Below, piece after piece: positions 25,758-59,314 of a stretch of 64,000 nucleotides of DNA. Position numbers and translations under genes: made by a program. Numbering within the stretch: position 1 is the first letter of the stretch; the number at the start of each line of letters is the position of its first letter. Origin of the DNA: an uncultured Planctomycetia bacterium (GTDB lineage Bacteria; Omnitrophota; Gorgyraeia; 1-14-0-20-64-10); contig CAZQXN010000003.1 of NCBI GenBank assembly GCA_964597545.1, positions 691-64,690 on the forward strand. The letters run 5' to 3'. The notes beneath the pieces were generated by a model that was given only the letters and a program-made list of their open reading frames with translations, searched no databases and had not been told where the DNA came from.

Positions 25758-25838
25758 TCTGGGACACTCTGGCTTTCAAGTGCCGAAGCATCCCTGCTGA
25801 TAAGTGTAAGGTGTGTCCCCAAATGGACCGTCCCCATT

Positions 25839-36770: not shown

Positions 36771-36836
36771 GGGTCAGGCACTTTTGTACCGGTTTGTACC
36801 AAAGGGTCTGACCCCTTGGTACAAAAGTGCCAGACC
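36771..36836. repeat. palindromic repeat family B copy (66-bp near-perfect palindrome)
   Basis: GGGTCAGGCACTTTTGTACCGGTTTGTACCAAAGGGTCTGACCCCTTGGTACAAAAGTGCCAGACCC; abuts the lolE stop codon. Confidence 0.75.
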
Positions 36837-41938: not shown

Positions 41939-41974
41939 CTGTACCGGGTACATCGTAGATGTACCCGGTACAGG
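41939..41974. repeat. GTAC-palindromic repeat family A, copy 1 (perfect 32-bp palindrome)
   Basis: GTACCGGGTACATCGTAGATGTACCCGGTAC between lnt and the Met-rich protein gene. Confidence 0.8.
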
Positions 41975-41982
41975 GTGCAGGA

Positions 41983-42381
41983 TCAGCGCTGTCCCCCGCC
42001 GGCCGACGGAAAACCGCTGGAGGTTACAATCTGCATGGCCTCCTCCTCAGAAAAGCCGCGCTCGATGAGGGCTGTATAGAGGTTTCGGCTGAAGCTGGCG
42101 AAATCATCGGCCACTTCCTGCTGAGCGAGGGCGTTGGCCATCCCGCGGATCATGACCTCCATCATCTGTCCCATCATCGGAATCATCATCGCCTGCATCA
42201 TCTGGCCGATCTCTTCGGGGGAGGGCTCCTCTTCGCCGCCCGGCCGCGCGGGTGCTGCCTGCCGGCTTCCCGGCTCCCATTGATCTGCGTCACCTTCCAC
42301 CGCAAAGGCCGCGCCCGAAGAAGCCACCAAGGCCGCAGCAAGCACTGCCGCTAACATCATCTGGAATCGCTTTGACATCAT
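41983..42381 (-). CDS. secreted Met-rich hypothetical protein (132 aa)
   Basis: GGAGAG RBS then MMSKRFQMMLAAVLAAALVASSGAAFA signal peptide. Met-rich segment MMQAMMIPMMGQMMEVM. The track ORF extends upstream through the repeat; start placed at the internal ATG. Confidence 0.55.
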   Translation of the reverse strand: MMSKRFQMMLAAVLAAALVASSGAAFAVEGDADQWEPGSRQAAPARPGGEEEPSPEEIGQMMQAMMIPMMGQMMEVMIRGMANALAQQEVADDFASFSRNLYTALIERGFSEEEAMQIVTSSGFPSAGGGQR

Positions 42382-42393
42382 TGCTCTCCTATT

Positions 42394-42477
42394 GGTTCGG
42401 TACCTGGTTCGGTACCTGGTTCGGTACCGGGTACATTGTACCCGGTACAATGTACCCGGTACCGGTTTTGGGTATGG
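42394..42477. repeat. GTAC-palindromic repeat family A, copy 2 (3x GGTTCGGTACCT tandem + 41-bp palindrome + GGTTTTGGGTATGG tail)
   Basis: GGTACCGGGTACATTGTACCCGGTACAATGTACCCGGTACCGGTTTTGGGTATGG abuts the secA stop codon. Confidence 0.8.
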
Positions 42478-42478
42478 A

Positions 42479-45346
42479 TTACGCACCGTGACACTTCTTG
42501 AATTTCTTTCCACTGCCGCAGGGGCAGGGGTCGTTGCGGCCCACCTTGGGCCCTTCCCTGCGCGCTGCTCCCGGAGGTGCGGCAGGGGACCTGGGCTGCG
42601 CCCCTCCCAGCGTTGAACTGATGGTGGGGGCTTGCGGGCTGCCGCTGGGCGGCGCAGCAGGTTCTCCTGCGCCAGGACCTTCGGTCGCGCTCGGAGCATC
42701 CGGGTGAATAAACTGCGTGGGAGCCATCACGCGACTCTGGCGCTCTTGGTGAGTCACCTGAATCCTGTAGAGCAGCTCCAACACCTGCGCCCGAACGGAT
42801 CCGACCATCTGGGTAAACATCTGATAAGCCTCGTGCTGATACTCCACCAGGGGATTCTGCTGGCCGTACACCCGGTAGCCGATCCCCTGTCTCAAGTGAT
42901 CCATGCTGAAGAGGTGATCCTTCCACTTGGAATCAATCACCCGCAGCATGACCCATCGTTCAAGCCGGCGCATCTCCTCAACCCCAAAGGTCTTCTCCCG
43001 TTCGGCATAGGTCTGGGAGGCCACAGTCTCAAGCCTCTCAACCAGCTCCCCGCGGCCCAAGGTCTCCAAACCGCTTACGACCACGCCGAACTGTCCCTGG
43101 AAAGCCTCGGCCATCTCTTTGAGGTTCCACTCCTCAGGCTCCTGGTGCTCTGGAGCGTAGAGATCGACGATCCCCTCAACCGCTTCATGGACTGACTTGA
43201 GGACCTCTGTTTTTAGATCGCCGCCCTCTAAAATCTCGCGCCGCTCCTTGTAGACCACCTCCCGCTGCCGGTTCATGACGTTGTCGTATTCCAACAACTG
43301 CTTGCGGATTTCAAAGTTGTGCATCTCCACCCGCTTCTGAGCGGTCTCTACGGCTCGAGTCAGCCATGGATGCTCAATCGCCTCCCCCGCCGGAATGGCT
43401 GCCTTGGTCCATTCCAAGAGGCGGTTCTCGCCAAAGAGCCGGATCAGCTCATCCTCCAGGGACAGATAAAAGCGGCTCGAACCCGGATCTCCCTGGCGCC
43501 CGGAGCGGCCTCGCAGCTGATTGTCGATCCGCCGGGACTCATGCCGCTCGGTACCTAAGACATGGAGGCCTCCCAGCTTCACCACCTTGTCATGCTCGCT
43601 CGAAGCCTGCTGCTGGAACTCACGCTCAATCTTGCCTCGCTCTTCCTCGGGCAAGGGGGCCTCGGGGTCGTCCCCTTGCCGGCGCTTACACTCCGCTTGA
43701 ATCAAGAAATCGGTGTTGCCGCCTAAGACAATGTCGGTTCCGCGGCCGGCCATGTTGGTGGCGATGGTCACCCCTTGGAAGCGACCGGCCTGAGCAACAA
43801 TCTGGGCTTCCATCTCGTGGTAGCGCGCATTGAGCACGGTGTGAGGAATCTGACGGGTCTTGAGCATCGCGCCCAACCGCTCTGATTTTTCAATCGAGAC
43901 CGTGCCCACCAGGACCGGGCGGCCGGCCTGGTGAAGCTCGGCAATCTCCTCCACCACCGCCTGGAATTTCTCCTCCTCGGTCTTAAGGATCACATCCGGA
44001 TGATTGGTGCGGGCGAGCGGCTGGTTGGTGGGGATGGAGGCCACATCCAACTTGTAGATCTCATGGAATTCCGCCGCCTCGGTGGAAGCGGTTCCGGTCA
44101 TCCCGGCCAACTTGTCGTACATCCGGAAGTAATTCTGGAAGGTGATCGTCGCCAAGGTCTGGTTCTCCCGCTCGATCTTGACCCCCTCCTTGGCTTCAAT
44201 CGCCTGGTGAAGTCCGTCGGACCAGCGCCTCCCGGGCATGAGCCGCCCGGTGAACTCATCGACGATCACCACCTGGTTGTCCTTGATCATGTAATCCACA
44301 TCCCGGCGATAGAGGGCATGGGCCCGGAGGCCCTGGTTGATGTGGTGAACCAGGGTGATGTGGGTATCGTCATAGAGGTTGTCCACCCCGAGGGCCTCCT
44401 CGGCCTTCTTAACCCCATCCTCGGTCAGCATCGCTGAGTGGGCCTTTTCATCCACCGTATAGTCGGCATCCCGTTTGAGTTTGGGGATCACTCGGTCGAT
44501 CTTGTAGTACAGCTCAGTGGATTCCTCGGCCGGCCCTGAGATGATGAGCGGGGTCCGGGCCTCGTCAACCAAGATGGAGTCGACCTCGTCGACAATGGCA
44601 TAGGAGAGCCGCCTTTGTACGCACTCGGCTGCTGAGATCGCCATGTTGTCCCTCAAGTAGTCAAAGCCAAATTCATTGTTGGTGCCGTACGTCACGTCAC
44701 AGGCGTAGGCAACCCGGCGCTCTCCGGGATCCATCCCGTGCTGGATGGTCCCGACGGTAAGTCCTAAGGTTTCATAGATCGGCCCCATCCAGTTGCGGTC
44801 TCGGCGAGCCAGGTAGTCGTTGACCGTGATCACATGCACCCCGCGTCCCAAGAGGGCATTCAGATAGACGGCCAAGGTGGCGACCAAGGTCTTGCCTTCA
44901 CCGGTGGCCATCTCGGCAATCATCCCCTGGTGGAGGACGAGCCCGCCGATCATCTGAACATCAAAGTGCCGCATCCCTGTTTTTCTGCGTCCGGTCTCGC
45001 GCACCAGGGCAAAGGCCTCGGGCAGAATCTCCTGCATGGCCTGCTCTTCGACCTTCAGGCGGCGCTTGCGCTCACGCTTTAGGAAATCTTCGTTCTCGAC
45101 CTCATCGGCTTCTTCGCCACGGCGAACCACCGGGACCGATCCATCCGGATTGAGGCCCCCTCCCAACGCTTCAATCCGTTCCTTGATCCGGGTTTTGAGT
45201 GCACGACTCTTCTCTGGAAGCTCACCGTCGGCAAGCTTCTGTATCTCGGGCTCAAAGGTCAGAATCTGCTCCACGGTGGGAGTAAGACGCTTGAGGAGCC
45301 GCGCATTCTGAGAGCCGACGATTTTTCTGAGAAACCAGGTGAACAT
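42479..45346 (-). CDS. secA: preprotein translocase ATPase SecA
   Basis: 955 aa. N-terminus [25 protein letters not shown]-like motifs, C-terminal zinc-binding [14 protein letters not shown]. Confidence 0.95.
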
Positions 45347-45351
45347 GGATC

Positions 45352-46468
45352 CTAAGCCTTTCCGGCTTTGCGCTGGGCTGACCAGCGCAAGGCTGCATCC
45401 AGGAAGAGGTCCAGCTCCTCACCGTCCAAGACCGCCTGGGTCTTTCCGGTCTCGGTGCCGGTGCGGTGGTCCTTCACCATCTGATAGGGCTGAAGCACAT
45501 AAGAGCGGATCTGACTGCCCCATTCAATCTTCTGTTTTTGGGCATGGGCCTGCGCCACTTTCTCATCGCGTTTTTTTCGCTCCAACTCATGCAAACGGGC
45601 CTTGAGCACCTTAAGGGCAGAGGCCTTGTTCTTGATCTGAGAACGCTCATTCTGGCACTGCACAACAATCCCGCTGGGCAAGTGGGTTACCCGTACCGCC
45701 GAATCGGTGGTGTTGACCCCCTGGCCCCCGGGCCCGCTGGCACGATAGACATCTACCCGGAGGTCCTTTTCCTGGATATCGATCTGGATCTCATCGGAGA
45801 TCTCCGGGATCACATCCACCGCCGCAAAGGAGGTGTGCCGCCTGCGGTTGGCGTCAAAGGGGGAAATCCTAACCAGCCGGTGCACCCCTGCCTCGCCCTT
45901 AAGCGAACCATAGGCGTAGTCGCCCCGGATGATTAGAGTGGCCGATTTGATTCCGGCCTCTTCGCCGGCCAAATAATCGATGACCTGTGGTGAGAAGGCC
46001 TTGGTCTCTGCCCAGCGGGAGTACATCCGAAACAGCATTGACACCCAGTCGCACGATTCGGTCCCCCCGGCGCCTGCGGCAATCGAGAGGATGGCTGGGT
46101 TCGGATCCATCTCATCCTGAAACAGGGTCCGATGTTCAAGCTGGCCGGCGGTCTTACCCAGGGCCTCCAGCGCCGCCTTCATCTCCGCCCTGGCTGCCGC
46201 ATCCTCCGGGTCGATCAAGGGGTTGAGCTCCTCCAAGGTTTGAAGCTCAGACCAGGCGGCGCGCCAGGGCTCGGCAACGGATTTAAGCCGTTTGAGCTCC
46301 TGGACGGTAACCTTGGCTTTATCTTGATCGTCCCAAAAACCTGGAGTGGCTAGCGATGCTTCAAGGGTTTGAATCCTGGACTCGGCTGAATCCAGGTCAA
46401 AGATACCCCCGAAGGTTTTGAAGGGTCTTTCGAAGGGCTGCGAGCTGCGCCGTAATCGATTCGAGCAT
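45352..46468 (-). CDS. prfB: peptide chain release factor 2 with programmed +1 ribosomal frameshift (shift site at 46397..46402)
   Basis: Frame 1: ATG at 46468 giving [23 protein letters not shown], then in-frame TGA inside CGG GGG TAT CTT TGA C. The +1 frame continues [10 protein letters not shown]...FWDDQDKA...SPF...GGQ. Confidence 0.9.
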
Positions 46469-46520
46469 AATGGATAATTATAGGGTGGGGATCTCTCGGA
46501 AGCAAGGGTGGAGGAACGTT

Positions 46521-46567
46521 CTTGGTACCGGGTACATATGTACCCGGTACCGGTTTTAGGTGTGGGG
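46521..46567. repeat. GTAC-palindromic repeat family A, copy 3 (28-bp perfect palindrome + tail)
   Basis: GGTACCGGGTACATATGTACCCGGTACC GGTTTTAGGTGTGGGG immediately followed by the stop codon of the 1466-aa gene. Confidence 0.85.
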
Positions 46568-49500
46568 TTACGCCAGCTCCTCTAACCAGCCAGCCAAGCG
46601 CTCGAGGTTAACTCGCTCGGCCACTGTTTTGGGAAGTAGACCGCTCATATTGGAGAGGAGCTTTTGAAGGACCTGCGCGAAGGCAGCCTGGCCTGCAACA
46701 TAGGTATCTGCAACTGTGACCAACGCTTTTTTGGCTTGGACCTTAAAACGCGCCGTCCACTCCTTGAAACCATAGACAAAGACAGTCCGGACACCTTGAC
46801 CAATGAGGCGCACAAGGGTCTGGTCGATATCGGGCTCGGCAACCATCACCCCTTCTTCAAGCCCCGCCAGCGCCTTTAAGCCCGGGTGCTGTCCCAAACC
46901 CGGCCCGATCAGATGAATCGCACCGGTATCTGCTCTGGGCAACTCTTGCAGTTCATCACGCACCCGCTCCTCCTGGCCGGCCTGCTCCGGCCCCAGCAAA
47001 TCATCAGCGGTAATCTCCGGGAAATGACGAACAACACTATAAGAAAGATCCATCGGCAGGGCTGCGGTATTCTCAACAAAGGCCATCTCCCCATTGGCCC
47101 TCACCACAAAGAAAGTCTCCGGCCCTGTCATCTCACTAAAGTCGCCATAGCCTCCCAGCGGAGTAGGAGTCCCGGCATCCTTTCTGACCATGAGGCCCGA
47201 TGCGTATCCCTCGGGTTGCTCGCTGTAGAGCTGGATGGTCTCTGTCTCCCCCTCCTGCAATACCCTCCTCAGCACAGTAATTCCTGCTCCATTGGAAAGG
47301 CGGCAATCCCTTCCGAGTGGATTCCTGACCCTTAAGTCATTTAATCCCATGACCTCTCGATACCGGCGGATCAGCGCCAAGAGCTGCTGCTCGTCATAGA
47401 GTCTGGCCAAAGGAATCCGTTGATCCGTGGCGGCCGCTGCAATCCTCATGCTGCCCTGTTGGCGAGCAAGCTCTAGAATGGTTCTGTCGGTGATGGTCTG
47501 AACAGTCAAATGCTGAACCGACAACACAGCCCCCAAGAAGGGAATGAGATTAAACAAAAAGACTTGCTGCGGCGTCACGATAGGGGGCTGAGGCGGAGCG
47601 TTCACATCCCAGTAGAGGTAACTGAGATCCCTAAACCGAAGCGAGGCCCTTTCCAACTGCAAGCTCAGTTTTTCCCCCGACCCAAAGAGAGTGCGGGCAA
47701 ACTGCTCAAATGGAGGTCGCTCTGTCCCTGCGGTCTTAAACCAGGTTACTGTGAGTTCTCGCGCAAAGAAATCAACGGCTGCAATTCGATCTTCAATCCT
47801 CTGCTCCTCCGGAGACAACGCCTGCTCCTCCAGACCGGTGCGATCGGCTGTAGCAACTTCTCCTCTCCCTGAATCCACCGAGGCATCTTCCCTTGGGAGA
47901 TCCGGCTCCGGCGCCTCATCGTCACTCCTGTCAAAATCAGAGGGGGGAGTCGTGGCGATGGCGGCAAGGGCGGTAAGAACAAACAGGGCGTTTGTCTGCT
48001 CTTCGGTTGCAAAGGGCACCTCTGGAGCTACAAACCGCGCCTCAACAAACGGATAAGCGGAGACTTGGGTTGGCATCTGATAAGATCGGTCTCCCCGGTT
48101 GAATCTGAGGTTAGCCGCCTCACCCGCAGGCATCGGTATCCCTCGAGTCACGAATTTGCTCATTGCCGTAGGGGTAAAAGTCTCGGGGACGCTAACGGCG
48201 AAAGCATCCTTTTCTGTGGCGTCGCCCTCTATTTGATAGCGGACCCACACAAAAATAAGCCCCCGAAGAGAAGTGTCGTCTCCCTGATACCTGTAAAAAA
48301 CGCGGCCCCCTTCCCGGGGAAAAGAAGAGGCGTGCAGCTCGCGCAACAATCTTGGCACCGGATCCGCCTCGTCTATACCGAAACCCAATCCGAGAGGGAT
48401 CGTCTCAAGGTCAAATTGGCCCTCTGTGATGGCCTTGCTCTGATCAATAACGCCATCGATCAACTCCTGGAAACGATCCTCTTCCACCGGCCCATGCAGT
48501 GAAAAATCAACGGCATTCTCCTCCAGCCCGGTCCCGTGCATTTTCAGATCGCTCGGCAAAACCAGTTCGACAAAGCGAACGTTCCAGTGTGATGCAACTA
48601 TTGGGAACCCGCTTTCCTCGCGCTGGTATGCCTCTAAAGTCGCATGCCTCCCACTCCCCCATGGCAGAACAAGGCGCCCACCTATGGCAAGCTGCCTACC
48701 CAGTGCATCCCGGGCTTCGAGATTGGGCGTAGCGGCAAAGGCAATGACAGCGTCAAAGAGCCCCTCATCCGGAAGGCCTAAGATTTCAGGGTCGCTTCGG
48801 CGGACCTCAACATTCCCGAAGTCTGCCAGTTTCCGAGCCGCATCCTGAGCGATCTCTGGATCCACTTCCAGGGCAATGACCCGGTTATCCCAATTTGGAC
48901 GCAAAAGTTCAAGATACCGGCTTAAGATGGCCGAAGAATAGCCGGGTCCTGCGCCAACCACCAAAATCCTTAAGGGTCTATCCTGGGCCAAGCTGCCGGT
49001 TCCCTCACCGTACAGTTGAGGCGGAACAGCTTGGTAAACCATCCAAGCAATCAGAGAGGGTAGGGTCACAGGTCCCTTGATGCCGTAATCGCTCCCGAAG
49101 GAATCGCGAAAGCTCTGTCCTGGGACAAAGTGTCCTCGGTCAACCTGCCGGAAAGCTTGCTCCAATGCTGGCGGCAATTCGGGTGCCCTGTCGCGCTTCA
49201 TCGCTCTCTGAAGGAGATCGATAAAGTGATCCTCTAGAGTCGGCCGCCCCTCCTCCAGGCCAGCTTTGGGCTCGGCTGAGGGACCGGAAGTGGTCGGACC
49301 AGCTTCGAAAAGGGGCGTTTCCCCCTCACGAAGCAGAAAATTCTTGATCTTTCGCTGTGCCAGCTCATTCTCGGCGGCGGCAGCTGATCCATCGTAGAGG
49401 ACAATCCCCTCAGGCCGAATGCCGACCCCGCTCACCTTAACCCACAAGAAACGGGAATTCCTGAAAGGTTTCCACTGATCATGCGCATTCATGATAACGC

Positions 49501-50968
49501 TGCCGTGAAAGCCGGGTTCCGGCTCAGCTCCTCCTTCTTCGAACGCCACGGATAGCGTCAGGTGCTCGGCCACTTCATGCAGCGTTACCCAAACCAGCCG
49601 TTCATCCCGGCGGAAAAGGTTAATGGCTGTCATCAGAACATCGACCTGCCCCGCAATGTCCTCGGAAAGCGCAAGGGCTGGGAGGGAAAAAGTGTGCTGC
49701 GTCCCTTGGCCCACGGTGCTGCTCACCCCTTCAAAGTCTCCCCCTGCCCCATGGACAATAGAGCGGATTATCCCCATCCCCCTGCCATGCCCACGAGCTT
49801 TTTCGCCGTCCTTGGTGGTAAAGGGCACCCCAGCCAGCAACCGCTGCAGGGTCTCCGGCTCCATGCCGCCGGCCTCATCAGAAACCTCCAAGCGAACGCT
49901 CCCCTCCTCGCCCCTGCTGAAAACAGCCCGAAAGGGGTTGCCTTTTCTTCCGTTTTCCTTCGCCGCGCGTGCGGCATTGTGGGCAAGGTTGTTGAGGACC
50001 TCATAGAGGCGGACCGGATCGATCCAAACATCAGGGGTATCTGGAGCTGCCAAGCACTCCACTTGAAGAGGCTGGCTGGATGGGGATGATTGAAGAATCG
50101 CTTCCATCTCCCCGGCAAACTGAACCAGGTCCACCCGCCTCGGTGTGCCCACCGGATCAAATCGGCCCCGCCGGTCAACAAAGTTGCGATGCAGCTGCTG
50201 AATCACGACATGGTGGATAACAAAATTCCGCGCCAACTGTCCCACCGGATGTGACAAGCCGGCGATGCGCACCTGATGGGTACGATGGATATGCCCCATG
50301 ACGAGAATGGCTCGGTCACTCAGCTCTTCCACCATCCGGCCAACTCGATGCTCTGTTTCGACGAGGCGCCGGCCAAGCTCATCGGCGCCCAAGCCTGCCA
50401 TGCCGTTTTCGATAGGCCAGGGTCTCGTCAAATTGCCCCACTCCTGCATATCGTCCACGAGCCTATCGTAAATAACGGTGTATCGCCGCATCGCCTCCCA
50501 GTTATCCATCTCCCGGATCTGTTCGGTTAAAGCAGCCCGAACCCCTGCAATTCTATTCAATTCGTTGCCCATGTCATGCAGAAGGTTGTCCAGTTGATCC
50601 ATATAGACCCAAACCGCCTGCTCGTCCCAGGTCTGCCCATCTGCCGAAACAGGACGATCGGCCGCCGCCTCATCTTGACTCGATGCCTCCTCCAATCCGA
50701 CCTGGAGCAGCTTGTGCAGTTCGCCCACAGCGGTATCTTCCTGGGGTTCGCGCAGGGTCCCTCGATCAAGCTGAGGATAGGCTCCGGCCGGGCTAGGCAA
50801 CCCAAGGCTCAGCGCCAACAAAAGGGCCAAGCATCTGGGCAAAAAAAGGCGTTTGAGTGTCAGATGGAGGCAGGCTCCGCCGTTCCTATTCATATAAGTA
50901 AGTTTACCTGATGGAAGGAGATATCGCCAAGGGTATAATTGGCTTTGTATTGCTACTAATTCAGCCAA
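46568..50968 (-). CDS. very large multidomain protein (1466 aa): signal peptide, possible degenerate metallophosphoesterase-like region, GHKL/HATPase_c domain, protein-L-isoaspartate O-methyltransferase (PCMT)-like domain, ~600-aa C-terminal region of unknown function
   Basis: HATPase: N-box LNNLAHNAARAA, G1 SDEAGGM, G2 GHGRGMG. PCMT: RGHFVPG...PSLIAWMV...ILVVGAGPGYSSAIL...NVEVRRSDPE...FDAVIAFAATP...GGRLVLPWG. GHIHRTH resembles the metallophosphatase GHxH motif. Confidence 0.65.
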   Translation of the reverse strand: MAELVAIQSQLYPWRYLLPSGKLTYMNRNGGACLHLTLKRLFLPRCLALLLALSLGLPSPAGAYPQLDRGTLREPQEDTAVGELHKLLQVGLEEASSQDEAAADRPVSADGQTWDEQAVWVYMDQLDNLLHDMGNELNRIAGVRAALTEQIREMDNWEAMRRYTVIYDRLVDDMQEWGNLTRPWPIENGMAGLGADELGRRLVETEHRVGRMVEELSDRAILVMGHIHRTHQVRIAGLSHPVGQLARNFVIHHVVIQQLHRNFVDRRGRFDPVGTPRRVDLVQFAGEMEAILQSSPSSQPLQVECLAAPDTPDVWIDPVRLYEVLNNLAHNAARAAKENGRKGNPFRAVFSRGEEGSVRLEVSDEAGGMEPETLQRLLAGVPFTTKDGEKARGHGRGMGIIRSIVHGAGGDFEGVSSTVGQGTQHTFSLPALALSEDIAGQVDVLMTAINLFRRDERLVWVTLHEVAEHLTLSVAFEEGGAEPEPGFHGSVIMNAHDQWKPFRNSRFLWVKVSGVGIRPEGIVLYDGSAAAAENELAQRKIKNFLLREGETPLFEAGPTTSGPSAEPKAGLEEGRPTLEDHFIDLLQRAMKRDRAPELPPALEQAFRQVDRGHFVPGQSFRDSFGSDYGIKGPVTLPSLIAWMVYQAVPPQLYGEGTGSLAQDRPLRILVVGAGPGYSSAILSRYLELLRPNWDNRVIALEVDPEIAQDAARKLADFGNVEVRRSDPEILGLPDEGLFDAVIAFAATPNLEARDALGRQLAIGGRLVLPWGSGRHATLEAYQREESGFPIVASHWNVRFVELVLPSDLKMHGTGLEENAVDFSLHGPVEEDRFQELIDGVIDQSKAITEGQFDLETIPLGLGFGIDEADPVPRLLRELHASSFPREGGRVFYRYQGDDTSLRGLIFVWVRYQIEGDATEKDAFAVSVPETFTPTAMSKFVTRGIPMPAGEAANLRFNRGDRSYQMPTQVSAYPFVEARFVAPEVPFATEEQTNALFVLTALAAIATTPPSDFDRSDDEAPEPDLPREDASVDSGRGEVATADRTGLEEQALSPEEQRIEDRIAAVDFFARELTVTWFKTAGTERPPFEQFARTLFGSGEKLSLQLERASLRFRDLSYLYWDVNAPPQPPIVTPQQVFLFNLIPFLGAVLSVQHLTVQTITDRTILELARQQGSMRIAAAATDQRIPLARLYDEQQLLALIRRYREVMGLNDLRVRNPLGRDCRLSNGAGITVLRRVLQEGETETIQLYSEQPEGYASGLMVRKDAGTPTPLGGYGDFSEMTGPETFFVVRANGEMAFVENTAALPMDLSYSVVRHFPEITADDLLGPEQAGQEERVRDELQELPRADTGAIHLIGPGLGQHPGLKALAGLEEGVMVAEPDIDQTLVRLIGQGVRTVFVYGFKEWTARFKVQAKKALVTVADTYVAGQAAFAQVLQKLLSNMSGLLPKTVAERVNLERLAGWLEELA

Positions 50969-51252
50969 TTTCCCTCTTTCTTCAACAGCCGGCGCTTGCG
51001 CGCCGGCCCCCCGGGGGCAGAATAGCCCCCCAGGTCGCCTGAGGAGGAGATGACCCGGTGGCAGGGGATCTTAGGTGCCCATTGGTTTCGCTTTAAGGCC
51101 TGCCCTACTGCCCGGGCTGCCTTCGGGCGGCCAATGGCTCGGGCGATCTGTCCGTAGGTGCGAACCTGGCCCTTGGGGATTTTCAAGACCGCCTCATACA
51201 CCTTGCGCTCAAACGGAGTCACTGACACTCGCCAATCGCGCAGCCGGCTCAT
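50956..51252 (-). CDS. ogt: methylated-DNA--protein-cysteine methyltransferase (MGMT/Ogt DNA-binding catalytic domain only, 98 aa)
   Basis: VPKGQVRTYGQIA...PCHRVI active-site motif. Confidence 0.8.
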   Translation of the reverse strand: MSRLRDWRVSVTPFERKVYEAVLKIPKGQVRTYGQIARAIGRPKAARAVGQALKRNQWAPKIPCHRVISSSGDLGGYSAPGGPARKRRLLKKEGNWLN

Positions 51253-52682
51253 CCTCTGGCAGGGCTCCTCAGCCTCTGGTGGACTCTCTGGGCGAGCACC
51301 GGCGAGATCCCCCGCACCTGGGTGAGGGTTTCCGGGGAGGCGCGGCGCATCGTCTCAACCGATCCAAAACGGACCAGCAGATCCTGTTTCTTCCTGGGAC
51401 CCAATCCAGGAATCTGATCCAAGGCTGAAGTCAAGGCATGCTTGCCCCTTAAGAGCCGGTGGTAGCCGATCGCAAAGCGGTGGGCTTCGTCGCGGATCCG
51501 CTGCATCAACTGAAGGGCGCGGGAGCTGGGGGGCAAGACAATGGGCTCTCTCTGCCCTGGGAGGAAGAGCTGTTCAAACTCCTTGGCAATGCCCACTGCC
51601 GGGAGTTGGAGCCCCCGGCCTTTGAGGACTTGCACCGCACAGCTTAAATGTCCCCTGCCCCCATCGATGACCACCAGGTCGGGTAACACAACGGTACCAG
51701 GTACCTTCGGTGCCTGGTACCTGGTTTTGGGGGCAAAGCGGCGCTCAACAATCTCCTGCATCATGGCATAGTCATCGATTCCGGAGACTGCTTTGATCTT
51801 GAAGCGCTTGTAGCCGTCCTTGTGGGGCTTGCCGTCGACAAAGGTGACCATGGAACCGACCGCCTCCCGGCCGAAGATGTTGGAGACGTCAAACCCTTCG
51901 ATCCTGCGCGGCAGCTTCTTCAACCGCAGCACCGACGCCAAATCTTCCAGCGCTTCAGAGGGAACCAGCCGCCGGGGCCGCACGGTCAGTTGAATGAGTC
52001 CTGCCACCTGGTCCCGGAAGCGGGCCGCATCCTCATACCGGCGCGCCTTGGAGGCTGAGAGCATCTTGCCCCTAAGCTCGTCGAGCACCTCCTCTTTCTT
52101 GCCCTCCATCAAACGAAAGACCTGGGCAAGCGCTTCTTCATAATCGGCCTGAGAGATCTTCTCCTCGCAAGGGGCAGAACAGAGCTTCAAGTGATAATCC
52201 AGGCAGGCCCGCTTGGGCAGTGTCCGACATGTTCTAAAGGGAATAATCCTGCGGATGGCCCGGAAGGCTTGGTGAAGCAGGGTGGCCTGGGTAAAGGGAC
52301 CCACGGCCCGAACTCCTGCCTCACTGGGGCCCCGCCCGACAAAGAGACGCGGAAAGGCCTCCTCTGCGGTGATCTTTAGATACGGATAGGATTTGTCGTC
52401 TTTGAGGGAGATGTTGTATTTAGGCTTATGCTCTTTGATGAGGGCATTCTCAATTAAGAGGGCCTCGGCCTCAGAGCCGGTGACAATCCACTCGAGATCC
52501 TCGGCATCCCGCACGAGCCGCATCTGCTTTTCGGCTTGGGGGCGTCCGGAATGAAAATAGGTTAAGATCCGCTTCTTTAAGGAGCGAGCCTTACCCACAT
52601 AGAGAATGACACCGGCGCGGTCCTTGAACAGATAGACGCCGGATTGATCGGGAAGTTGTTTTAGCCGCGCCTGAACAGCCAT
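51249..52682 (-). CDS. uvrC: excinuclease ABC subunit C (short form, 477 aa)
   Basis: GIY-YIG GVYLFKDRAGVILYVGKA; UvrBC-binding and RNaseH-like regions (DLVVIDGGRGHL, RIRDEAHRFAI); C-terminal HhH. A GTAC-palindrome copy lies inside the coding sequence. Confidence 0.85.
   Translation of the reverse strand: MAVQARLKQLPDQSGVYLFKDRAGVILYVGKARSLKKRILTYFHSGRPQAEKQMRLVRDAEDLEWIVTGSEAEALLIENALIKEHKPKYNISLKDDKSYPYLKITAEEAFPRLFVGRGPSEAGVRAVGPFTQATLLHQAFRAIRRIIPFRTCRTLPKRACLDYHLKLCSAPCEEKISQADYEEALAQVFRLMEGKKEEVLDELRGKMLSASKARRYEDAARFRDQVAGLIQLTVRPRRLVPSEALEDLASVLRLKKLPRRIEGFDVSNIFGREAVGSMVTFVDGKPHKDGYKRFKIKAVSGIDDYAMMQEIVERRFAPKTRYQAPKVPGTVVLPDLVVIDGGRGHLSCAVQVLKGRGLQLPAVGIAKEFEQLFLPGQREPIVLPPSSRALQLMQRIRDEAHRFAIGYHRLLRGKHALTSALDQIPGLGPRKKQDLLVRFGSVETMRRASPETLTQVRGISPVLAQRVHQRLRSPARG
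51693..51733. repeat. GTAC-palindromic repeat family A, copy 4, inside uvrC coding sequence (ORF unbroken)
   Basis: GGTACCAGGTACCTTCGGTGCCTGGTACC TGGTTTTGGGGG encodes KTRYQAPKVPGT within ...RRFAPKTRYQAPKVPGTVVLPDLVVIDGG. Confidence 0.7.
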
Positions 52683-54253: not shown

Positions 54254-54521
54254 GCCAAACGTTCATGCTGCAAAAAAACGGGTACGAGCCGATCGGAAGC
54301 GACACCAGCAGAATCTCAACATCACATCGGAGCTCAAAACCTTGACGCGATCCCTTCAGGCGCTGATCAAGGAGAAGAAGACCGATCACGCTCGCCAGAT
54401 CCTTCAGAAGCTGACCAAGCGACTGGACCAGGCCGCCAGCAAAGGACTCCTCCATCGCAACACCGCTTCCCGGAAGAAGTCCCGCCTGGCTCGCCTACTC
54501 GCCTCCGGCAGCGCTTCCTAG
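54252..54521 (+). CDS. rpsT: 30S ribosomal protein S20
   Basis: MPNVHAAKKRVRADRKRHQQN...ASKGLLHRNTASRKKSRLARLL. Start at the internal ATG of track ORF 53862..54521; divergent from murJ. Confidence 0.85.
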   Translation: MPNVHAAKKRVRADRKRHQQNLNITSELKTLTRSLQALIKEKKTDHARQILQKLTKRLDQAASKGLLHRNTASRKKSRLARLLASGSAS

Positions 54522-54542
54522 TATTCGCTTTCCGCCCTCAGC

Positions 54543-55532
54543 TTACGAGCCCAACCCCATCAGGAGTTGATCTGCCAAAAGCTCCGGTGCGGGGTGGCCG
54601 TATTTGACGTGTGAATCGGCCTCCATGGCATCGGCCAGCGCCTTCTCGAGTTTTGTCACCGGCCAGCGGGCCAACCGGCTTAAGGCCGCCTGTCGAGCCG
54701 GAGACATCCATCGAGCAACAGCCCCACCCTGCCGCGTCTTCCAGGCCATCCGGTAATACCAACCCATTGCGCCAAAGAACTGCTCAATCGAGATCCTGCC
54801 TGCGGCAATTCCCCGGTGCAGCCCGAGCAACGCATCCTCCATCTTGCCGGAGGCGGCGGAATCCAAGATCTCAAAGGCAGTCTCCTGATAGGAGGGGGGG
54901 ATAAGGGCCTCAACATCGCAAGCTTCAATGGGCTCAGCCGAATCCACTAAAAGGGAGAGGCTCTCCAGGGCCAGGCTTAAACTGTTGAGGTCTGCTCCGG
55001 CGCGCGCCGTCAACAGCGCCGCTGCCTGAGGCTTAAGCTGCTTGCCCAGCTGCTGGGCTTGAGTCACCAGCCAATCCTGAAGCGCCCTGCCCTTTAAGGG
55101 GTAGCACTCCATGATTTCAATCCCCTTAGAGCGCAAGGCAGCAGGAGAGAATCCTCCCCGCTTCTCATCTGTCGCATCAGCGCAGATGACCAGAAGGGTC
55201 TTGGGGTTCGGGTGGTTGAGATACCTTTCCAGCCAAGGGAGATGCTTGGGGGTAAGGACCTTAAGCCCCTCCACCACCACCAGGCGCCGCTCGGAACCAA
55301 AGGGGAGGGTCTGCAGTGCCTCGAGAAGGGTTTGCGATTCTTCCTCGGCGGGATTGTGGAAACGGGCAAGGTCCGTCTCTTCAAAACCGTCTGTGACCCA
55401 CTTGGATTTGAGCTGATCGACGGCCTGAAGTTGAAGGAGACGCTCCGGCCCTAAGCAGAGGACAACCGAAGGCCTACCAGTACTCAACGACCCACTCCAC
55501 GACGCGCCGGGAAAAATCCACCACCAGGTCAT
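54543..55532 (-). CDS. holA: DNA polymerase III delta subunit (start uncertain)
   Basis: Conserved lptE-holA gene order. Delta-subunit N-terminal domain pattern (VVLCLGPERLL). Helical C-terminal domain. Confidence 0.6.
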   Translation of the reverse strand: MTWWWIFPGASWSGSLSTGRPSVVLCLGPERLLQLQAVDQLKSKWVTDGFEETDLARFHNPAEEESQTLLEALQTLPFGSERRLVVVEGLKVLTPKHLPWLERYLNHPNPKTLLVICADATDEKRGGFSPAALRSKGIEIMECYPLKGRALQDWLVTQAQQLGKQLKPQAAALLTARAGADLNSLSLALESLSLLVDSAEPIEACDVEALIPPSYQETAFEILDSAASGKMEDALLGLHRGIAAGRISIEQFFGAMGWYYRMAWKTRQGGAVARWMSPARQAALSRLARWPVTKLEKALADAMEADSHVKYGHPAPELLADQLLMGLGS

Positions 55533-56046
55533 TGACCGCTGTCGACTCAGCTACAGCGGCCGAGCCTTGGACAAAGTAAGTGGTGTCGGCGATCAAGGCG
55601 GGCTCTTCCAGCACAAGCTCCCCTTTGGCGTCCCGGAGTGTTAGAGCGGCGACGAGATTGAGGCGATATTCTTCTACCGACTCGTCATTCAGCCGGCGGA
55701 TCGGCTGGCGGTAGAAATCCTTAAGCTCCCCATACAGGATGAGATCCGCCGTGGATCGCTCCGAGGTGACCCGGAGATTGCCGTCAAAGAGGAACCGTTC
55801 GTACAGCCCCTGGGTGACGTCCTCCTCAAGCTTGGGGATATTGCTGATGAAGCCAGTCCATTCGCTGGTTTCTTGGGCAATCGGAATCCGGTTTTGGATC
55901 GGCTCAATGTAGATCACCTGGTACTCGGCAGGAAGGAGCCGGGTCGCAGAGTAGCCGCACCCAGCCAGAGACAGCGCCAAGAACACCGAAACCACACCTG
56001 CGACACGCGTTGATCCAAAGAGGGTTTTCGTCCATCCGGCACTCAT
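55474..56046 (-). CDS. lptE: LPS-assembly lipoprotein LptE-like
   Basis: Lipobox LSLAGC, ~190 aa, located immediately upstream of holA as in the conserved lptE-holA arrangement. Confidence 0.5.
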   Translation of the reverse strand: MSAGWTKTLFGSTRVAGVVSVFLALSLAGCGYSATRLLPAEYQVIYIEPIQNRIPIAQETSEWTGFISNIPKLEEDVTQGLYERFLFDGNLRVTSERSTADLILYGELKDFYRQPIRRLNDESVEEYRLNLVAALTLRDAKGELVLEEPALIADTTYFVQGSAAVAESTAVNDLVVDFSRRVVEWVVEYW

Positions 56047-57026
56047 TCGGCGTCTAGCTCCTGCAGTTTGGAGACGGCCGTGGCCGCATAAGAGGACTCT
56101 GGATATAGGTCCACAATCTCCCGGTAATAAAAGACAGCGGATTTCGGCTTGCCCTGGATCTCATAGAACTGGGCGATCTCGGCAAGCCCTTTGGCTTTAA
56201 TCTCACGCAGCTGCACCAAGCTCTTTTTGGCCTCGGGTACCAAATCGCTGTCTGGGTGGCTCTCAATGAAGCTTTCGAACCATTCCATCGCCTCTTCGGT
56301 CGCTGACTGATCGTAGCTGGCCTTAAGGGAAAGTTGTCTGGCGCAGTAGGCCACCTTGAACTCCGCATCCTCAATCAGGTCAGAGGCGGGATATTCATCC
56401 ACCACCCGCTGAAACGCCCGGTTGGCCTCCTCAAAGCGGTTCTGTTTGAGATAGCACTCGCCCAGGCGAAGCTGAGCCCGCGCTCCAAAAGCACCGTACG
56501 GAGCGTGGTCCACCACATGCTGGTAAATCTCAATGGCGGTGCTCAGCGCCGGAAGTGTGACCGGTCCGATCAGCTCCATGCGCTTTCCGGCAAAGAAGCT
56601 CTCGGCGATCAAGAACTCCCGCTCCACCGCCTCCTTGAACTCAACGCTGAAAGGATAGACCTCTACCACCTGTTTGTAGGCCCTAAAAGCATGGCGGGGT
56701 TTGTTCATCAACTCATAGGAAAGGCCAGCCAGATACTGCGCCTTGGGGGCCAACTCTGAGCGGGGATAGGTGCGGACCAGCCGGATGAATTCCTTGACGG
56801 CGCGGGGATAATCCTGCCCCTCAAAGAAGTCCACCGCCCATTCCATCTGGTGCCCAGGGGTATCTTTCGCCGCATACTTAGGGTTAATCCAGCGGCGGGT
56901 TTGGGGGGTCCAAACCCAATCAGCAGCTGCCTCAACAGCCAGGAAGCTGATTAAAAGTGCGGCAAAGATAACGGGTCTTGGTTTCATGGGGACATTCCGG
57001 TGGATTCTGATCTGTAACGATACCAC
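56043..57026 (-). CDS. TPR-repeat outer membrane assembly lipoprotein BamD-like
   Basis: Signal peptide plus TPR-like repeats; ~320 aa, BamD/YfiO-like. Confidence 0.5.
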   Translation of the reverse strand: MVSLQIRIHRNVPMKPRPVIFAALLISFLAVEAAADWVWTPQTRRWINPKYAAKDTPGHQMEWAVDFFEGQDYPRAVKEFIRLVRTYPRSELAPKAQYLAGLSYELMNKPRHAFRAYKQVVEVYPFSVEFKEAVEREFLIAESFFAGKRMELIGPVTLPALSTAIEIYQHVVDHAPYGAFGARAQLRLGECYLKQNRFEEANRAFQRVVDEYPASDLIEDAEFKVAYCARQLSLKASYDQSATEEAMEWFESFIESHPDSDLVPEAKKSLVQLREIKAKGLAEIAQFYEIQGKPKSAVFYYREIVDLYPESSYAATAVSKLQELDAE

Positions 57027-57088
57027 ACTAAGAATCAGGGTGTAAAGGCTTGGCCCATGTCATCCCCGACTTGATCGGGGATCTCCTT

Positions 57089-57157
57089 CTGGTACCCGGT
57101 ACCGATTTTAGATCTGGTATCTGGTACCAAGTTTAGGTTTGGTAGCTGGTACCGACT
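57089..57157. repeat. GTAC-repeat family A, copy 5 (multiple GGTACC units with GATTTTAG / AAGTTTAGGTTTGG spacers)
   Basis: CTGGTACCCGGTACCGATTTTAGATCTGGTATCTGGTACCAAGTTTAGGTTTGGTAGCTGGTACCGACT immediately 3' of the PilZ stop codon. Confidence 0.75.
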
Positions 57158-57562
57158 CTACGCCGGAGCAGCCCCGGCCCTGGCTACAACCCCCTGGAGG
57201 ACATAATGGGTGATGGCAGAGCGGTCTTCCCCTTGAATCTGGGTGAATTGAAGGCCGCATTCGCAGCTTTTGGCGGGCCATTCCTTGCGAATCCACACCA
57301 CCTGAGCAATGGTTCGAATCGAGCGCTTTAGGCCCGGCAGGGACAGTTCCAGCACCAGCTGCGTTCCCTTAGACAAGAGGGAGGCAGCACTCATCCGGAC
57401 ACCGCCTTGGCTGATATCCTTGAGCCGAGACTCGGCAAAGGGCTCTTCGGGCTTTAAGAGCTCTCGGCTTTGGATTCGGCCGTCGACCTTGAGGCGGGGC
57501 TGGCGTCGGTCGGGAATATGCACACCGGGGATTAGAATGTTTTCGTCCATAGTTACCTGCAA
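57158..57562 (-). CDS. PilZ domain protein (c-di-GMP binding)
   Basis: RRQPR and DISQGGVRM PilZ motifs. Confidence 0.7.
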   Translation of the reverse strand: MQVTMDENILIPGVHIPDRRQPRLKVDGRIQSRELLKPEEPFAESRLKDISQGGVRMSAASLLSKGTQLVLELSLPGLKRSIRTIAQVVWIRKEWPAKSCECGLQFTQIQGEDRSAITHYVLQGVVARAGAAPA

Positions 57563-57599
57563 TTGTATTCATTTTATCACAGGGATGCCGCACCGTGTG

Positions 57600-57700
57600 C
57601 CGATTTTTGGGTTCTGGTACCAGGTACCGATTTCTGCTTCTGGTACCGGGTACACTCGCTGTTAAAAATTGTACCTGGTACCGATGTTAGGTGTTGTTTT
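57600..57700. repeat. GTAC-repeat family A, copy 6
   Basis: GATTTTTGGGTTCTGGTACCAGGTACCGATTTCTGCTTCTGGTACCGGGTACA...TGTACCTGGTACCGATGTTAGGTGTTG, ending ~13 nt before the comEC stop. Confidence 0.75.
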
Positions 57701-57712
57701 TGTGCGACAGCG

Positions 57713-59314
57713 CTACCACTGCCAGGCAGCGCCGGGTAGATCAGCTATCCAGTTGACCAGGCGGGTCAGCCCCCAGGCCAACAGTTCGAAACTGGCAGCA
57801 AAGGGCTTAGCCAGCACCGGGCTTACGAATCCGACGCCATATACCAGAAAACCTGTGGCGATCAAGAGGGAGGCCCAGGGGACCACCACCAGATTGGCCA
57901 AGGGGGCGATCAGGGTCACGGTCTTAAAATGCCAGGCGATAAGGGGCAAAACAGCGACCCACGCTGCACAGGAGACTGCAAGGGCCTGAGCGATGCGCCG
58001 CTGGATCTTTGCCCAGGCACCAGGTACCGGCTGTAAGATTTTGGTACAGATTTCGGTACCAGGTACCGATTTCTGATTTTGGTACCTGGTACCGATTTGA
58101 GGTGTTGATTTGAAGATGTGGGGGCCAACCAACAAAATCCCTAAGACCGCTGCAAAGGAAAGTTGAAAGCTGGGGTCCCAAATCGCTCTGGGCTGCAGCA
58201 CAAGAATGACCAGCGCGGCCAACCCCAATGCATTGAGTGCGCTGTGGGCCCGACCCAAGGCCAGATTCAGACAAAGGATCACCCCCATGATGGTGGCCCG
58301 AACAATTGGAAGGCGCATGCCGGTCAAAGTGCAGTAGACCACCAGAATCCCGGCCAGCAGGCAATAGCGCAAGCCCCGGGGAATGCACACAACCGAGAGG
58401 AGCAGGTTGCAGATAAGCCCAATCAACCCCACATGGAGGCCGCTGACTACCAAGACGTGGACCGTACCGGTCTTACGAAAAAGCTCCTTGAGGCTCTTGG
58501 GAATTCCCTGCCCCTCACCCAGGAGGAGTCCCTCCAAGTAAACGCGCGCCTCGGGCGATACCAAGGAGCGGCCTAGCTGAATAAGTTTCCAGCGCAAGGC
58601 GGCGATTGACTTGCGGTAGCGGGAATAGAGGCCGGAGGCAGCTTGCAGCTGCACGATCCCCTCGCGCGCTGAAACCGTCAATACCCCTTCTGCCCCTCTG
58701 AGCCACAGCCACCTCGTCTCATCCCAACCCTGGTACCGGTTTTCGTTTTTGGTACCGCTTTTGGTACCGGGTACAGTTATTGACAGCGCCTGTTGAGAAG
58801 TGTACCCGGTACCGGGTTTAGGTGTGGGGGTATGTCCTGCTCGGATTGTCCCGTAGGCTCGCAGGCGATCGCCGTATCCCAGAGAGTCATCCCACCGGGG
58901 CCACTTGAGCTTGAGCTTGCCGGAGGCGGGCAGCCAGCGATCCCCTTGCCGGATGGAATTGATCTTAAGCCACGCCGTTCGAATCCGTCGGTTGAAGGCG
59001 GGGGCGTGTGGGTCGCTGACCAGGACTCCCTCAATGGCTGCAGGGCGTGGTCCCGCCGTAAGGTAACGGGCAAGGGAATCCGGTGCAACTCGCTGATCCA
59101 CCCCCAACCGGAATGCCCCCAACAAGCAAACCAGCAGGGTCATCATCAGGTTGGCTCTCGGAGGATGGCGCCGGAACCAAAACGGCAGGGCAACTGCCAA
59201 AACGGTCAGGAGCCCCAGAAAAACGCATGGCAGCGCCAAGAATCCCTGCAGGCCAATACCTAATCCCAGCGAGAGGACCAACCAGAAGAGTGGCGAACGA
59301 ATGCGCTCAGTCAA
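57713..59314 (-). CDS. comEC: DNA internalization competence protein ComEC/Rec2 (533 aa, no beta-lactamase domain) carrying two in-frame repeat insertions
   Basis: Competence domain VHVLVVSGLHVGLIGL; polytopic. Protein segments PQIGTRYQNQKSVPGTEICTKILQPVPG and TPKPGTGYTSQQALSITVPGTKSGTKNENRYQG are encoded by repeat copies 7 and 8. Confidence 0.8.
   Translation of the reverse strand: MTERIRSPLFWLVLSLGLGIGLQGFLALPCVFLGLLTVLAVALPFWFRRHPPRANLMMTLLVCLLGAFRLGVDQRVAPDSLARYLTAGPRPAAIEGVLVSDPHAPAFNRRIRTAWLKINSIRQGDRWLPASGKLKLKWPRWDDSLGYGDRLRAYGTIRAGHTPTPKPGTGYTSQQALSITVPGTKSGTKNENRYQGWDETRWLWLRGAEGVLTVSAREGIVQLQAASGLYSRYRKSIAALRWKLIQLGRSLVSPEARVYLEGLLLGEGQGIPKSLKELFRKTGTVHVLVVSGLHVGLIGLICNLLLSVVCIPRGLRYCLLAGILVVYCTLTGMRLPIVRATIMGVILCLNLALGRAHSALNALGLAALVILVLQPRAIWDPSFQLSFAAVLGILLVGPHIFKSTPQIGTRYQNQKSVPGTEICTKILQPVPGAWAKIQRRIAQALAVSCAAWVAVLPLIAWHFKTVTLIAPLANLVVVPWASLLIATGFLVYGVGFVSPVLAKPFAASFELLAWGLTRLVNWIADLPGAAWQW
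58019..58112. repeat. GTAC-repeat family A, copy 7 (in-frame within comEC)
   Basis: CAGGTACCGGCTGTAAGATTTTGGTACAGATTTCGGTACCAGGTACCGATTTCTGATTTTGGTACCTGGTACCGATTTGAGGTGTTGATTTG. Confidence 0.8.
58731..58833. repeat. GTAC-repeat family A, copy 8 (in-frame within comEC; palindrome arms GGTACCGGGTACA / TGTACCCGGTACC plus tail GGGTTTAGGTGTGGGGG)
   Basis: TGGTACCGGTTTTCGTTTTTGGTACCGCTTTTGGTACCGGGTACAGTTATTGACAGCGCCTGTTGAGAAGTGTACCCGGTACCGGGTTTAGGTGTGGGGGTATG. Confidence 0.8.

Follow-up and report, generated by a model that had tools for sequence, protein, structure and literature searches.

GTACC-type palindromes with features of REP elements in operon gaps and in frame within comEC and uvrC of an Omnitrophota genome

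Introduction

Among described bacterial repeats, the repetitive extragenic palindromic (REP) elements of Escherichia coli, Pseudomonas, and Stenotrophomonas, with the arrangements known as bacterial interspersed mosaic elements (BIMEs) and REPINs, are close counterparts of the elements reported here. They are stem-loop palindromes that occur as inverted doublets and mosaic arrays, lie next to stop codons, and have in-frame copies in excision-repair and recombination genes (PMC2817692, PMC3116915, PMC3733652). All of these traits are shared by a family of palindromes with the core GTACC-N-GGTAC that we describe from a 64-kb window (the whole stretch of DNA analyzed, part of contig CAZQXN010000003.1) of an uncultured bacterium of the phylum Omnitrophota. 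The homologs of its ComEC and UvrC proteins bear the names Candidatus Omnitrophica or Omnitrophota. According to Di Nocera 2013 (PMC3733652), REPs are found mostly just downstream of open reading frames (ORFs), between co-directional or convergent genes, and REP ends often supply the stop codon. The same survey also found REPs inside ORFs of several species, singly, as dimers, or in groups that encode 20-80 residues. The host genes are often those for excinuclease ABC, UvrD, recBCD, and polymerase, and intragenic GTAG repeats are most numerous in Opitutus terrae.

REP-associated tyrosine transposases (RAYTs) are encoded by genes that, in the textbook arrangement called the REPtron, are flanked on both sides by the repeat (PMC2817692, PMC3116915, PMC3733652). 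Di Nocera 2013 (PMC3733652) also describes TIRtrons, in which RAYT-like genes are flanked by long inverted repeats with a GGGGWSAS motif. Rickettsia palindromic elements (RPEs), of which RPE-4 and RPE-6 are CGTC-type REPs according to Di Nocera 2013, resemble the window elements in that they insert in frame into essential or housekeeping genes, uvr genes among them, and leave the host ORF open with an extra surface peptide. They differ in host and in core; most copies here are 36-100 nt long, versus 100-150 bp for RPE-1, and the copies here are mostly intergenic. Finally, miniature inverted-repeat transposable elements (MITEs; Correia/NEMIS, RUP, ERIC, Nezha, and Chunjie) are likewise miniature, non-coding, transcribed with their neighbors, and sometimes in frame, but the terminal inverted repeats, target-site duplications, and DDE-type parent insertion sequence (IS) of MITEs were not found here.

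Results and Discussion

The hexamer GGTACC occurs 36 times in the window versus 6.0 +/- 2.3 times in dinucleotide-preserving shuffles, and 28 of these 36 sites fall inside eight repeat clusters. The longer palindrome GTACCNGGTAC is present in exact form 16 times, and both the initial 41.9 kb and the final 5 kb of the window are free of exact matches. Allowing at most one mismatch gives 23 matches (0.44 expected), all but one of which lie within the eight clusters. An original prediction, made from the DNA alone, had proposed eight copies of a palindromic repeat; all eight are present at the coordinates that it gave and are built from GTACC palindromes (22 units at no more than one mismatch). 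The building block is an 11-13 bp palindrome, (G)GTACC-N-GGTAC(C), and all eight clusters have a single polarity. Five fill gaps in co-directional operons and the other three lie in frame within comEC (two) and uvrC (one).

Read on the minus strand, the sense strand of the genes, each cluster starts with an A-rich head, followed by a GGTACC-R-GGTAC(A) unit, a spacer of 2-25 nt, and (T)GTACC-Y-GGTACC as the partner; some clusters continue with more GGTACC units that have A-rich spacers. The head reads ..ACACCTAAAAYC (for example, CCCCACACCTAAAACC) and corresponds to the tail seen from the other strand. The shared tail previously proposed, GGTTTTAGGTGTGGGG, is well conserved in copies 3 and 8, but the other copies have looser versions of it. 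The sequence that had been offered as an example of the unit, GGTACCGGGTACATATGTACCCGGTACC, is located at 46524-46551. Each unit is a perfect 13-bp palindrome, GGTACC-N-GGTACC, with one asymmetric center base. The center bases are complementary in seven of seven doublets, with a purine in the first unit and a pyrimidine in its partner. Inside the stem, GTAC recurs as a self-complementary tetranucleotide. Tandem Repeats Finder assigned copy 2 a period of 12 nt and copies 5, 6, and 7 periods of 25-26 nt. A unit consisting of a 13-bp palindrome and an A-rich head sets the family apart from known REPs and REPINs.

Hairpins were predicted at the RNA level in all eight clusters, as the original prediction had suspected, with stems of 9-20 bp, energies of -20 to -49 kcal/mol, and z scores of -2.2 to -6.8. 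DNA folds, computed for copies 1, 3, and 4, were strong as well (z -2.9 to -6.9). No Rfam family matches the repeats at the gathering threshold, and a known RNA family was rejected on this basis. Intrinsic (Rho-independent) terminators on the sense strand were also rejected, given that the hairpins come after an A-rich head there and are not followed by a U-tract. Terminator-like matches of copies 2, 3, 5, 6, and 7 are on the plus strand only, antisense to the genes, and copy 4 has an additional weak 5-pair match on the minus strand.

The five intergenic clusters are all on the minus strand. Copy 3 (46521-46567), the cleanest, lies immediately 3' of the stop codon of a gene for a 1466-aa protein and reads TAA-CCCCACACCTAAAACC-GGTACCgGGTACAtaTGTACCcGGTACC on the sense strand (12-bp RNA stem, -26.4 kcal/mol, z -4.5). 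This protein combines a histidine-kinase-type ATPase (HATPase) domain with a protein-isoaspartate methyltransferase (PCMT) domain. Copy 2 (42394-42478) occupies the entire gap from the secA stop codon (42479-42481) to the ribosome-binding site of the next gene. It comprises a head, three GTACCNGGTAC units, and three tandem 12-nt units (TGGTTCGGTACC; 3.3 copies at period 12), and its RNA is predicted to form a 20-bp stem (-48.9 kcal/mol, z -6.4). The hairpins of copies 2 and 3 begin 15-16 nt after the stop codon. This is a distance at which E. coli REPs reportedly stall terminating ribosomes, as Liang, Rudd, and Deutscher are said to have found in 2015. Copy 1 (41939-41974) is an inverted doublet, GTACCgGGTACA-7 nt-TGTACCcGGTACA, in the 52-nt gap that separates the stop codon of a small ORF (41983) from the lnt start (41930), with a 16-bp predicted RNA stem (-31 kcal/mol, z -6.8; DNA fold z -6.9).

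Copy 5 (57089-57157), between the pilZ stop codon (57158) and a bamD-like gene, is an array with a 25-nt period (2.7 copies) in which one GGTACC unit is intact and several are decayed. The adjacent PilZ-domain gene spans 57158-57562. Copy 6 (57600-57700), located between the comEC stop codon (57713) and the pilZ start (57562), has a head and three GTACCNGGTAC units that repeat every 26 nt. Among these intergenic clusters two touch a stop codon and two more lie 4-12 nt away, which bears out the stop-codon abutment noted previously: the tail reaches the stops of secA (42479) and of the 1466-aa gene (46568), a GGTACC unit is 4 nt from the stop of pilZ, and copy 6 starts about 12 nt from that of comEC. 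A TTAC target site, comparable to that of IS608, was considered and rejected, as it follows the tail in copies 2 and 3 only and in both is due to a GCG-TAA gene end. Annotations of comEC, uvrC, pilZ, comEA, a gene for an MGMT-type DNA-binding protein, and the 1466-aa HATPase/PCMT gene were confirmed with Pfam; secA, prfB, lnt, and lysS were identified by reading translations.

The comEC gene (57713-59314, minus strand) is an intact ORF that matches Pfam Competence in a single stretch (6e-58) and DUF4131 (1e-15). The uvrC ORF (51249-52682, minus strand) is also intact and encodes GIY-YIG, UVR, UvrC_RNaseH_dom, and HhH domains. Both frames remain open through the three copies that they host, as had been claimed, and the encoded peptides contain the predicted VPGT and RYQ motifs as well as PGTG. 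Copy 4 (51687-51734, minus strand) encodes APKTRYQAPKVPGTVV, residues 317-332 of UvrC, in the loop from RRF to LPDL of the RNase H-like endonuclease domain. This loop is 7-12 residues shorter in three solved UvrC structures than in the window protein, and in at least six orthologs from Omnitrophota there is no insert but a linker of five or six residues. Copy 7 (58010-58108, minus strand; comEC site 2) encodes STPQIGTRYQNQKSVPGTEICTKILQPVPGAWA (residues 403-435), which lies in the Competence domain with a transmembrane helix on either side. Copy 8 (58730-58834, minus strand; comEC site 1) encodes HTPTPKPGTGYTSQQALSITVPGTKSGTKNENRYQ, residues 161-195, in the DUF4131/OB-fold domain. In an alignment of 21 ComEC orthologs both insert sites are variable loops.

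AlphaFold2 models of both proteins have a mean predicted local distance difference test (pLDDT) score of 83. In UvrC, values drop below 50 at residues 321-329; in ComEC, the sole long segments below 50 are residues 174-193 and 409-429, which fall within inserts 161-195 and 403-435. The models thus predict the three inserts to be disordered or variable loops, the lowest-confidence parts of otherwise confident structures. The core, GGTACCNGGTACC, has no stop codon in any of the six frames, so in-frame copies in tolerant surface loops would be expected to survive.

Comparison with orthologs identifies the copies as insertions, as originally proposed: a JGI metagenome contig (L001; JGI 3300009127) and a locus from an NCBI assembly (L120; GCA_964373805.1) are without most of them, and many Omnitrophota UvrC proteins have no insert. 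L001, whose ComEC is 79% identical, shares 6.2 kb of synteny with the window at 88.5% nucleotide identity. Copy 8 is missing from it, with 7 residues versus 35 in the window (a net difference of 84 nt), and copy 6 corresponds to 26 nt versus about 126 nt. The copy 5 region is about 72 nt shorter and retains nothing but a decayed GGTGCCGGGTGCC, and comEC site 2 holds a GGTACC-bounded segment that differs from that of the window. L120 (UvrC 71% identical) is syntenic from comEA to lysS, over 20 kb. Its gap at copy 1 has no GGTACC, its gap between secA and the next gene is 16 nt without GGTACC, and its gap at copy 6 is 14 nt. The GTACC units of L120 are confined to the uvrC loop and the lnt-lysS spacer, and that spacer is empty in the window. 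A third Omnitrophota contig, L127, has GTACC-type inserts at two ComEC positions, including a different insert at site 1, and a UvrC without one. Four further Omnitrophota metagenome-assembled genomes (MAGs) have doublets, and in three of these (L033, L055, and L066) the doublet lies 4-26 nt past a stop codon. Overall, at least six Omnitrophota assemblies besides this one carry the GTACC family, with copies at other loci. In relatives, most copies are missing from the syntenic locus or are located elsewhere, from which we infer gain and loss of copies.

A second palindrome family, ATCCCCGATCAAGTCGGGGAT (8-bp stem), is located beside copy 5 at 57062-57082 (minus strand), with another copy at 19192-19212 (plus strand) that has two changes and keeps its pairing. 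A near-identical ATCCCCGATCAAGTCGGGGAT copy lies at 1431-1453 of L001, inside the ComEC site-2 insert and between two GGTACC sites, suggesting that the families can be nested.

The uvrC doublet can be followed across three lineages. It reads GGTACCaGGcACC-gaa-GGTACCtGGTACC in the window, GGTACCgGGTACC-gaa-GGTACCcGGTACC in a contig with 91% identity (L122), and GGTGCCaGGCACC-11 nt-GGTACCtGGTACC in L120. The center bases vary by lineage (a/t versus g/c) with complementarity kept, and one arm is decaying. The insertion is thus old enough to be common to all three. Other UvrC orthologs have GQTL/GLTP-type peptides at this same loop, and in L123 the GQTL/GLTP insert is encoded by three GGGTCWGACCC units with a 15-nt period. 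Two palindrome families have thus colonized one UvrC loop independently. On these alignments the UvrC and ComEC loops behave as insertion hot spots, whether through targeting or tolerance. Inserts of differing length or family, or none, are seen by Omnitrophota lineage at UvrC alignment columns 340-375 and ComEC columns 250-295 and 520-560. Taken as a syntenic series, the window, L122, L001, L120, L127, and L123 may be viewed as a natural experiment in which mobile palindromes turn into protein sequence, with insertion, decay, paired center-base changes, and replacement at single UvrC and ComEC loops.

The GGGTCWGACCC family occurs in L123 at 822-860, 1679-1702, 10979-11017, and 14691-14714, as 15-nt-period arrays that are in frame in uvrC and leuS and encode GQTL/GLTP. 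It is also present in the window (five occurrences; 15583-15673, 34504-34557, and 36770-36838), partly with GTAC-ended arms.

We conclude with considerable confidence that the eight clusters belong to a dispersed, hairpin-forming, REP-like family that is gained and lost between lineages. The earlier comparison with RPEs and REPs as dispersed palindromic repeats agrees with the hairpins, with the insertions relative to orthologs, and with the association of the motif with RAYT genes in other genomes, described below.

We scanned one genome per GTDB species for the pattern GTACCNGGTACA-N(0-30)-TGTACCNGGTAC, for which we estimate about two chance matches. At least 113 eight-kb blocks matched. Among the matches listed are Rossellomorea, Halobacillus, Lysinibacillus, and Halanaerobium (Bacillaceae and Halanaerobiales), Clostridia MAGs, Gemmatimonadota, Marinimicrobia, Omnitrophota, Beta- and Gammaproteobacteria, Rhodospirillaceae, Planctomycetota, and others. 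In Halanaerobium the motif forms 36-nt perfect palindromes. In Bacillaceae of the genera Rossellomorea, Lysinibacillus, and Halobacillus (L013, L016, L029, L034, L053, and L099) it forms arrays of 3-7 TGTACCWGGTACA units with an exact period of 25 nt or 28 nt. The 12-nt spacers of these 13-mer arrays are variable. The regularity of the arrays, which window copies 5-7 share, recalls that of protein-binding arrays. A CRISPR-like array was considered for the 25-nt period and rejected given the 13-nt units, the 12-nt spacers, and the flanking RAYT. A metagenome scan with the tail pattern GTACCNGGTACCGNNTTNRGGTRT returned five matches, none attributable to the source lineage; four are 22-nt-period arrays of low-GC organisms (0.37-0.41), and the fifth (L118; GC 0.61) is a single unit.

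At five loci in three phyla, motif doublets or arrays occur on both sides of a gene encoding about 190-230 aa: two in Rossellomorea (L016, with the gene at 3812-4504, and L053), two in Marinimicrobia (L010 and L072), and one in Gemmatimonadota (L024). At a sixth locus (L057, Clostridia) the transposase gene is farther from the motif. The motif-flanked genes match Pfam Y1_Tnp, and their only NCBIfam match is NF047646, REP-associated tyrosine transposase (80.3, 69, and 60 bits versus a cut-off of 80). Among solved structures, E. coli TnpA-REP (4ER8) is the best relative and ISDra2 TnpA ranks behind it, and the HUH histidines and the catalytic tyrosine are invariant. Two-sided flanking of a RAYT gene by the motif is the REPtron arrangement (PMC2817692, PMC3116915, PMC3733652), and genomes with a motif-flanked transposase also have additional, dispersed motif clusters.

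Somewhat less firmly, we favor a REP/REPIN-type explanation for the family as a whole, with copying by a RAYT, remodeling by slippage, an RNA-hairpin role past stop codons, and passive in-frame survival in tolerant loops. A Y1/HUH RAYT that acts in trans, with its gene elsewhere in the genome, would produce new copies from hairpins of single-stranded DNA. Slippage and recombination between self-complementary GGTACC units would then lengthen, shorten, and reshuffle the arrays. Copies past stop codons inside operons would be transcribed, and their 12-20-bp RNA hairpins, with no U-tract, would probably be barriers to 3'-exonucleases or modulators of translation rather than terminators. An RNA-level role of this kind is probable by analogy with known REP biology. 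In-frame copies that survive would be inherited as disordered peptide inserts in ComEC and UvrC.

An explanation without a dedicated transposase is that a microsatellite-like palindrome spreads through local slippage, hairpin-mediated template switching, and gene conversion. We regard this as unlikely, although it survives better than the other alternatives. It would account for the tandem 12-nt and 25-26-nt arrays of variable length, for the location of all eight clusters within 17 kb, for the different arrangements at the same site (comEC site 2 versus that of L001, and a 3-nt versus an 11-nt spacer in the uvrC doublet), and for target-site duplications not being seen. However, it leaves a de novo copy in a protein loop (copy 8 compared with L001) unexplained, and it does not predict the head-plus-doublet architecture at unlinked and non-orthologous Omnitrophota sites, the same 11-mer in many phyla, or the RAYT genes inside such repeats in other genomes.

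A slightly less probable alternative is that the 11-bp palindrome is the binding site of a dimeric host protein, either nucleoid-associated or a regulator, with arrays kept by selection. GTACC-N-GGTAC is a perfect dyad of a size read by dimeric DNA-binding proteins, the 25-26-nt spacing in the window and in Bacillaceae corresponds to about 2.5 helical turns, and the exact core is kept across phyla while spacers vary. Selected binding sites are hard to reconcile with copies gained and lost between close relatives beside conserved genes, or with copies in coding loops that have no obvious regulatory reason. In addition, RAYT is the only protein that consistently adjoins the motif, and the complementary center bases in all seven doublets point to a hairpin unit and not to independent duplex sites.

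MITEs, as IS deletion derivatives moved by a DDE transposase via terminal inverted repeats, are a further candidate that we consider less probable again. The elements are small, palindromic, non-coding, and polymorphic between relatives, and in-frame MITE insertions are known in other bacteria (PMC3733652). On the other hand, several copies are 36-47 nt long compared with 70-300 bp for typical MITEs, the boundaries relative to L001 have no target-site duplications, the window encodes no DDE transposase, a parent IS with these ends was not seen, and the sole transposase type associated with the motif is Y1/HUH. Very improbable is a signal enriched by biased uptake during transformation: DNA uptake sequences (DUS) of Neisseria and uptake signal sequences (USS) of Haemophilus are short, often in inverted pairs past genes, and tolerated inside genes, as is this motif, which moreover lies in and around the competence genes comEA and comEC and a repair gene, but DUS and USS occur about once per kb on both strands, versus 47 of 64 kb empty and a single polarity here, and the same core flanks RAYT genes in phyla with unrelated competence systems.

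Several observations weigh against the REP/REPIN-type explanation. No RAYT gene is present in the window, in L001, or at any Omnitrophota locus examined, and a profile search for RAYTs gave none attributable to Omnitrophota among 120 matches listed of thousands. The role of a RAYT as mobilizer, raised in the original prediction, is upheld in part, by the RAYT genes that the motif flanks in other phyla. Target-site duplications are absent at the boundaries of copies 5, 6, and 8 relative to L001, and at copies 6 and 8 the L001 sequence differs, with neither a simple excision nor a clean empty site. Unlike REPs and REPINs, the clusters have no GTAG or CGTC tag visible at either end on inspection by eye, for which no dedicated pattern search was made. 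All eight clusters lie inside 17 kb and the remaining 47 kb of the window has none, a distribution unlike the even spread typical of REPs; this packing is unexplained. Described REPs and REPINs thus differ from the eight clusters in this local concentration and in that a cognate RAYT is here hypothesized.

Also weighing against it is a test in the reverse direction. Three RAYT homologs (L124-L126) were picked by protein similarity alone and are 46-56% identical to the RAYT of Marinimicrobia. The inverted repeats that flank them are of the GGGGTCAGAC(TCGA) type and not GTACCNGGTAC. The GTACC motif is thus not a general property of this RAYT clade, and the idea that the clade always carries it was rejected; given GGGGTCAGAC flanks on RAYTs this similar, repeat type is not tied simply to RAYT similarity. 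The GGGGTCAGAC flanks fit the GGGGWSAS motif of TIRtrons (PMC3733652) and represent a repeat family different from GTACC. The GGGTCWGACCC palindromes described above resemble these GGGGTCAGAC inverted repeats.

Regarding novelty, the GTACC core was not found described, either by literal-sequence search or in the main REP/RAYT papers. Nor did the searched literature contain an account of a cross-phylum GTACC core, of REPs in Omnitrophota, or of a loop that is a hot spot for two families. The claim that the family is new holds to this extent, but the core is not private to the source genome and occurs in many phyla. Its behavior has precedents, since REPs are already known to abut stop codons and to lie in frame within genes, excision-repair and recombination genes included, as the uvrC and comEC copies do (PMC3733652).

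An identical 11-mer core in many phyla contrasts with the described REP families, which are lineage-specific. Tentatively, and with the odds against it, GTACC-N-GGTAC might be the recognition core of a class of REPs across Bacillota, Halanaerobiales, Gemmatimonadota, Marinimicrobia, Omnitrophota, Proteobacteria, and others, kept by one RAYT lineage or acquired with it again and again, and two unrelated families in Omnitrophota might be actively targeted to the same loops of UvrC (RRY..LPDL) and ComEC, beyond mere tolerance there. If true, this would conflict with the picture of REPIN-RAYT systems as lineage-specific and strictly vertical, and REP insertion would repeatedly supply proteins of DNA uptake and repair with new disordered segments. 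A tagless core common base for base to distant phyla could also provide a handle on RAYT specificity, whether it is conserved or horizontally transferred. More broadly, these findings would extend the biology of REPs and REPINs to the Omnitrophota, a phylum whose very small cells are uncultured. For annotation, the repeats may explain low-complexity VPGT/RYQ and GQTL/GLTP segments and inflated intergenic gaps in Omnitrophota.

Additional Features of the Window and Its Relatives

Another lineage-specific palindromic insertion in or next to coding sequence was identified at the 5' end of murJ in L001 (5118-5206), where there are 58 + 25 extra nt compared with the window, including the GC-rich palindrome GCAGCGCCGCGAAGGCGGCGCTGC. 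In L120, a ParE/PhdYeFM toxin-antitoxin pair (2426-2960) is located immediately upstream of comEA; the window does not have it. The window also contains a 27-nt inverted repeat at a gene junction (25741-25839), with arms (AAAGGGGGACGGTCCATTCTGGGACAC / GTGTCCCCAAATGGACCGTCCCCATTT) that are 45 nt apart and 89% complementary; its sequence is unrelated to the GTACC family.

Upstream of comEA are two ORFs with no Pfam domain (59751-61589 and 61438-63954, both minus strand; 612 and 838 aa). Both carry GLEE-type motifs, as does the 1466-aa protein (46568-50968, minus strand). Positions 1-12000 have a G+C content of 0.48-0.54, versus 0.55-0.61 elsewhere, with genes on the plus strand, and this region may be of different origin. 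Two cyclic di-GMP-I aptamers were predicted on the minus strand at 10734-10809 and 12158-12234 (RF03167, the GGC variant, 64 bits; RF01051, 56 bits), and these two riboswitches account for a 49-nt direct repeat (D9) in the window.

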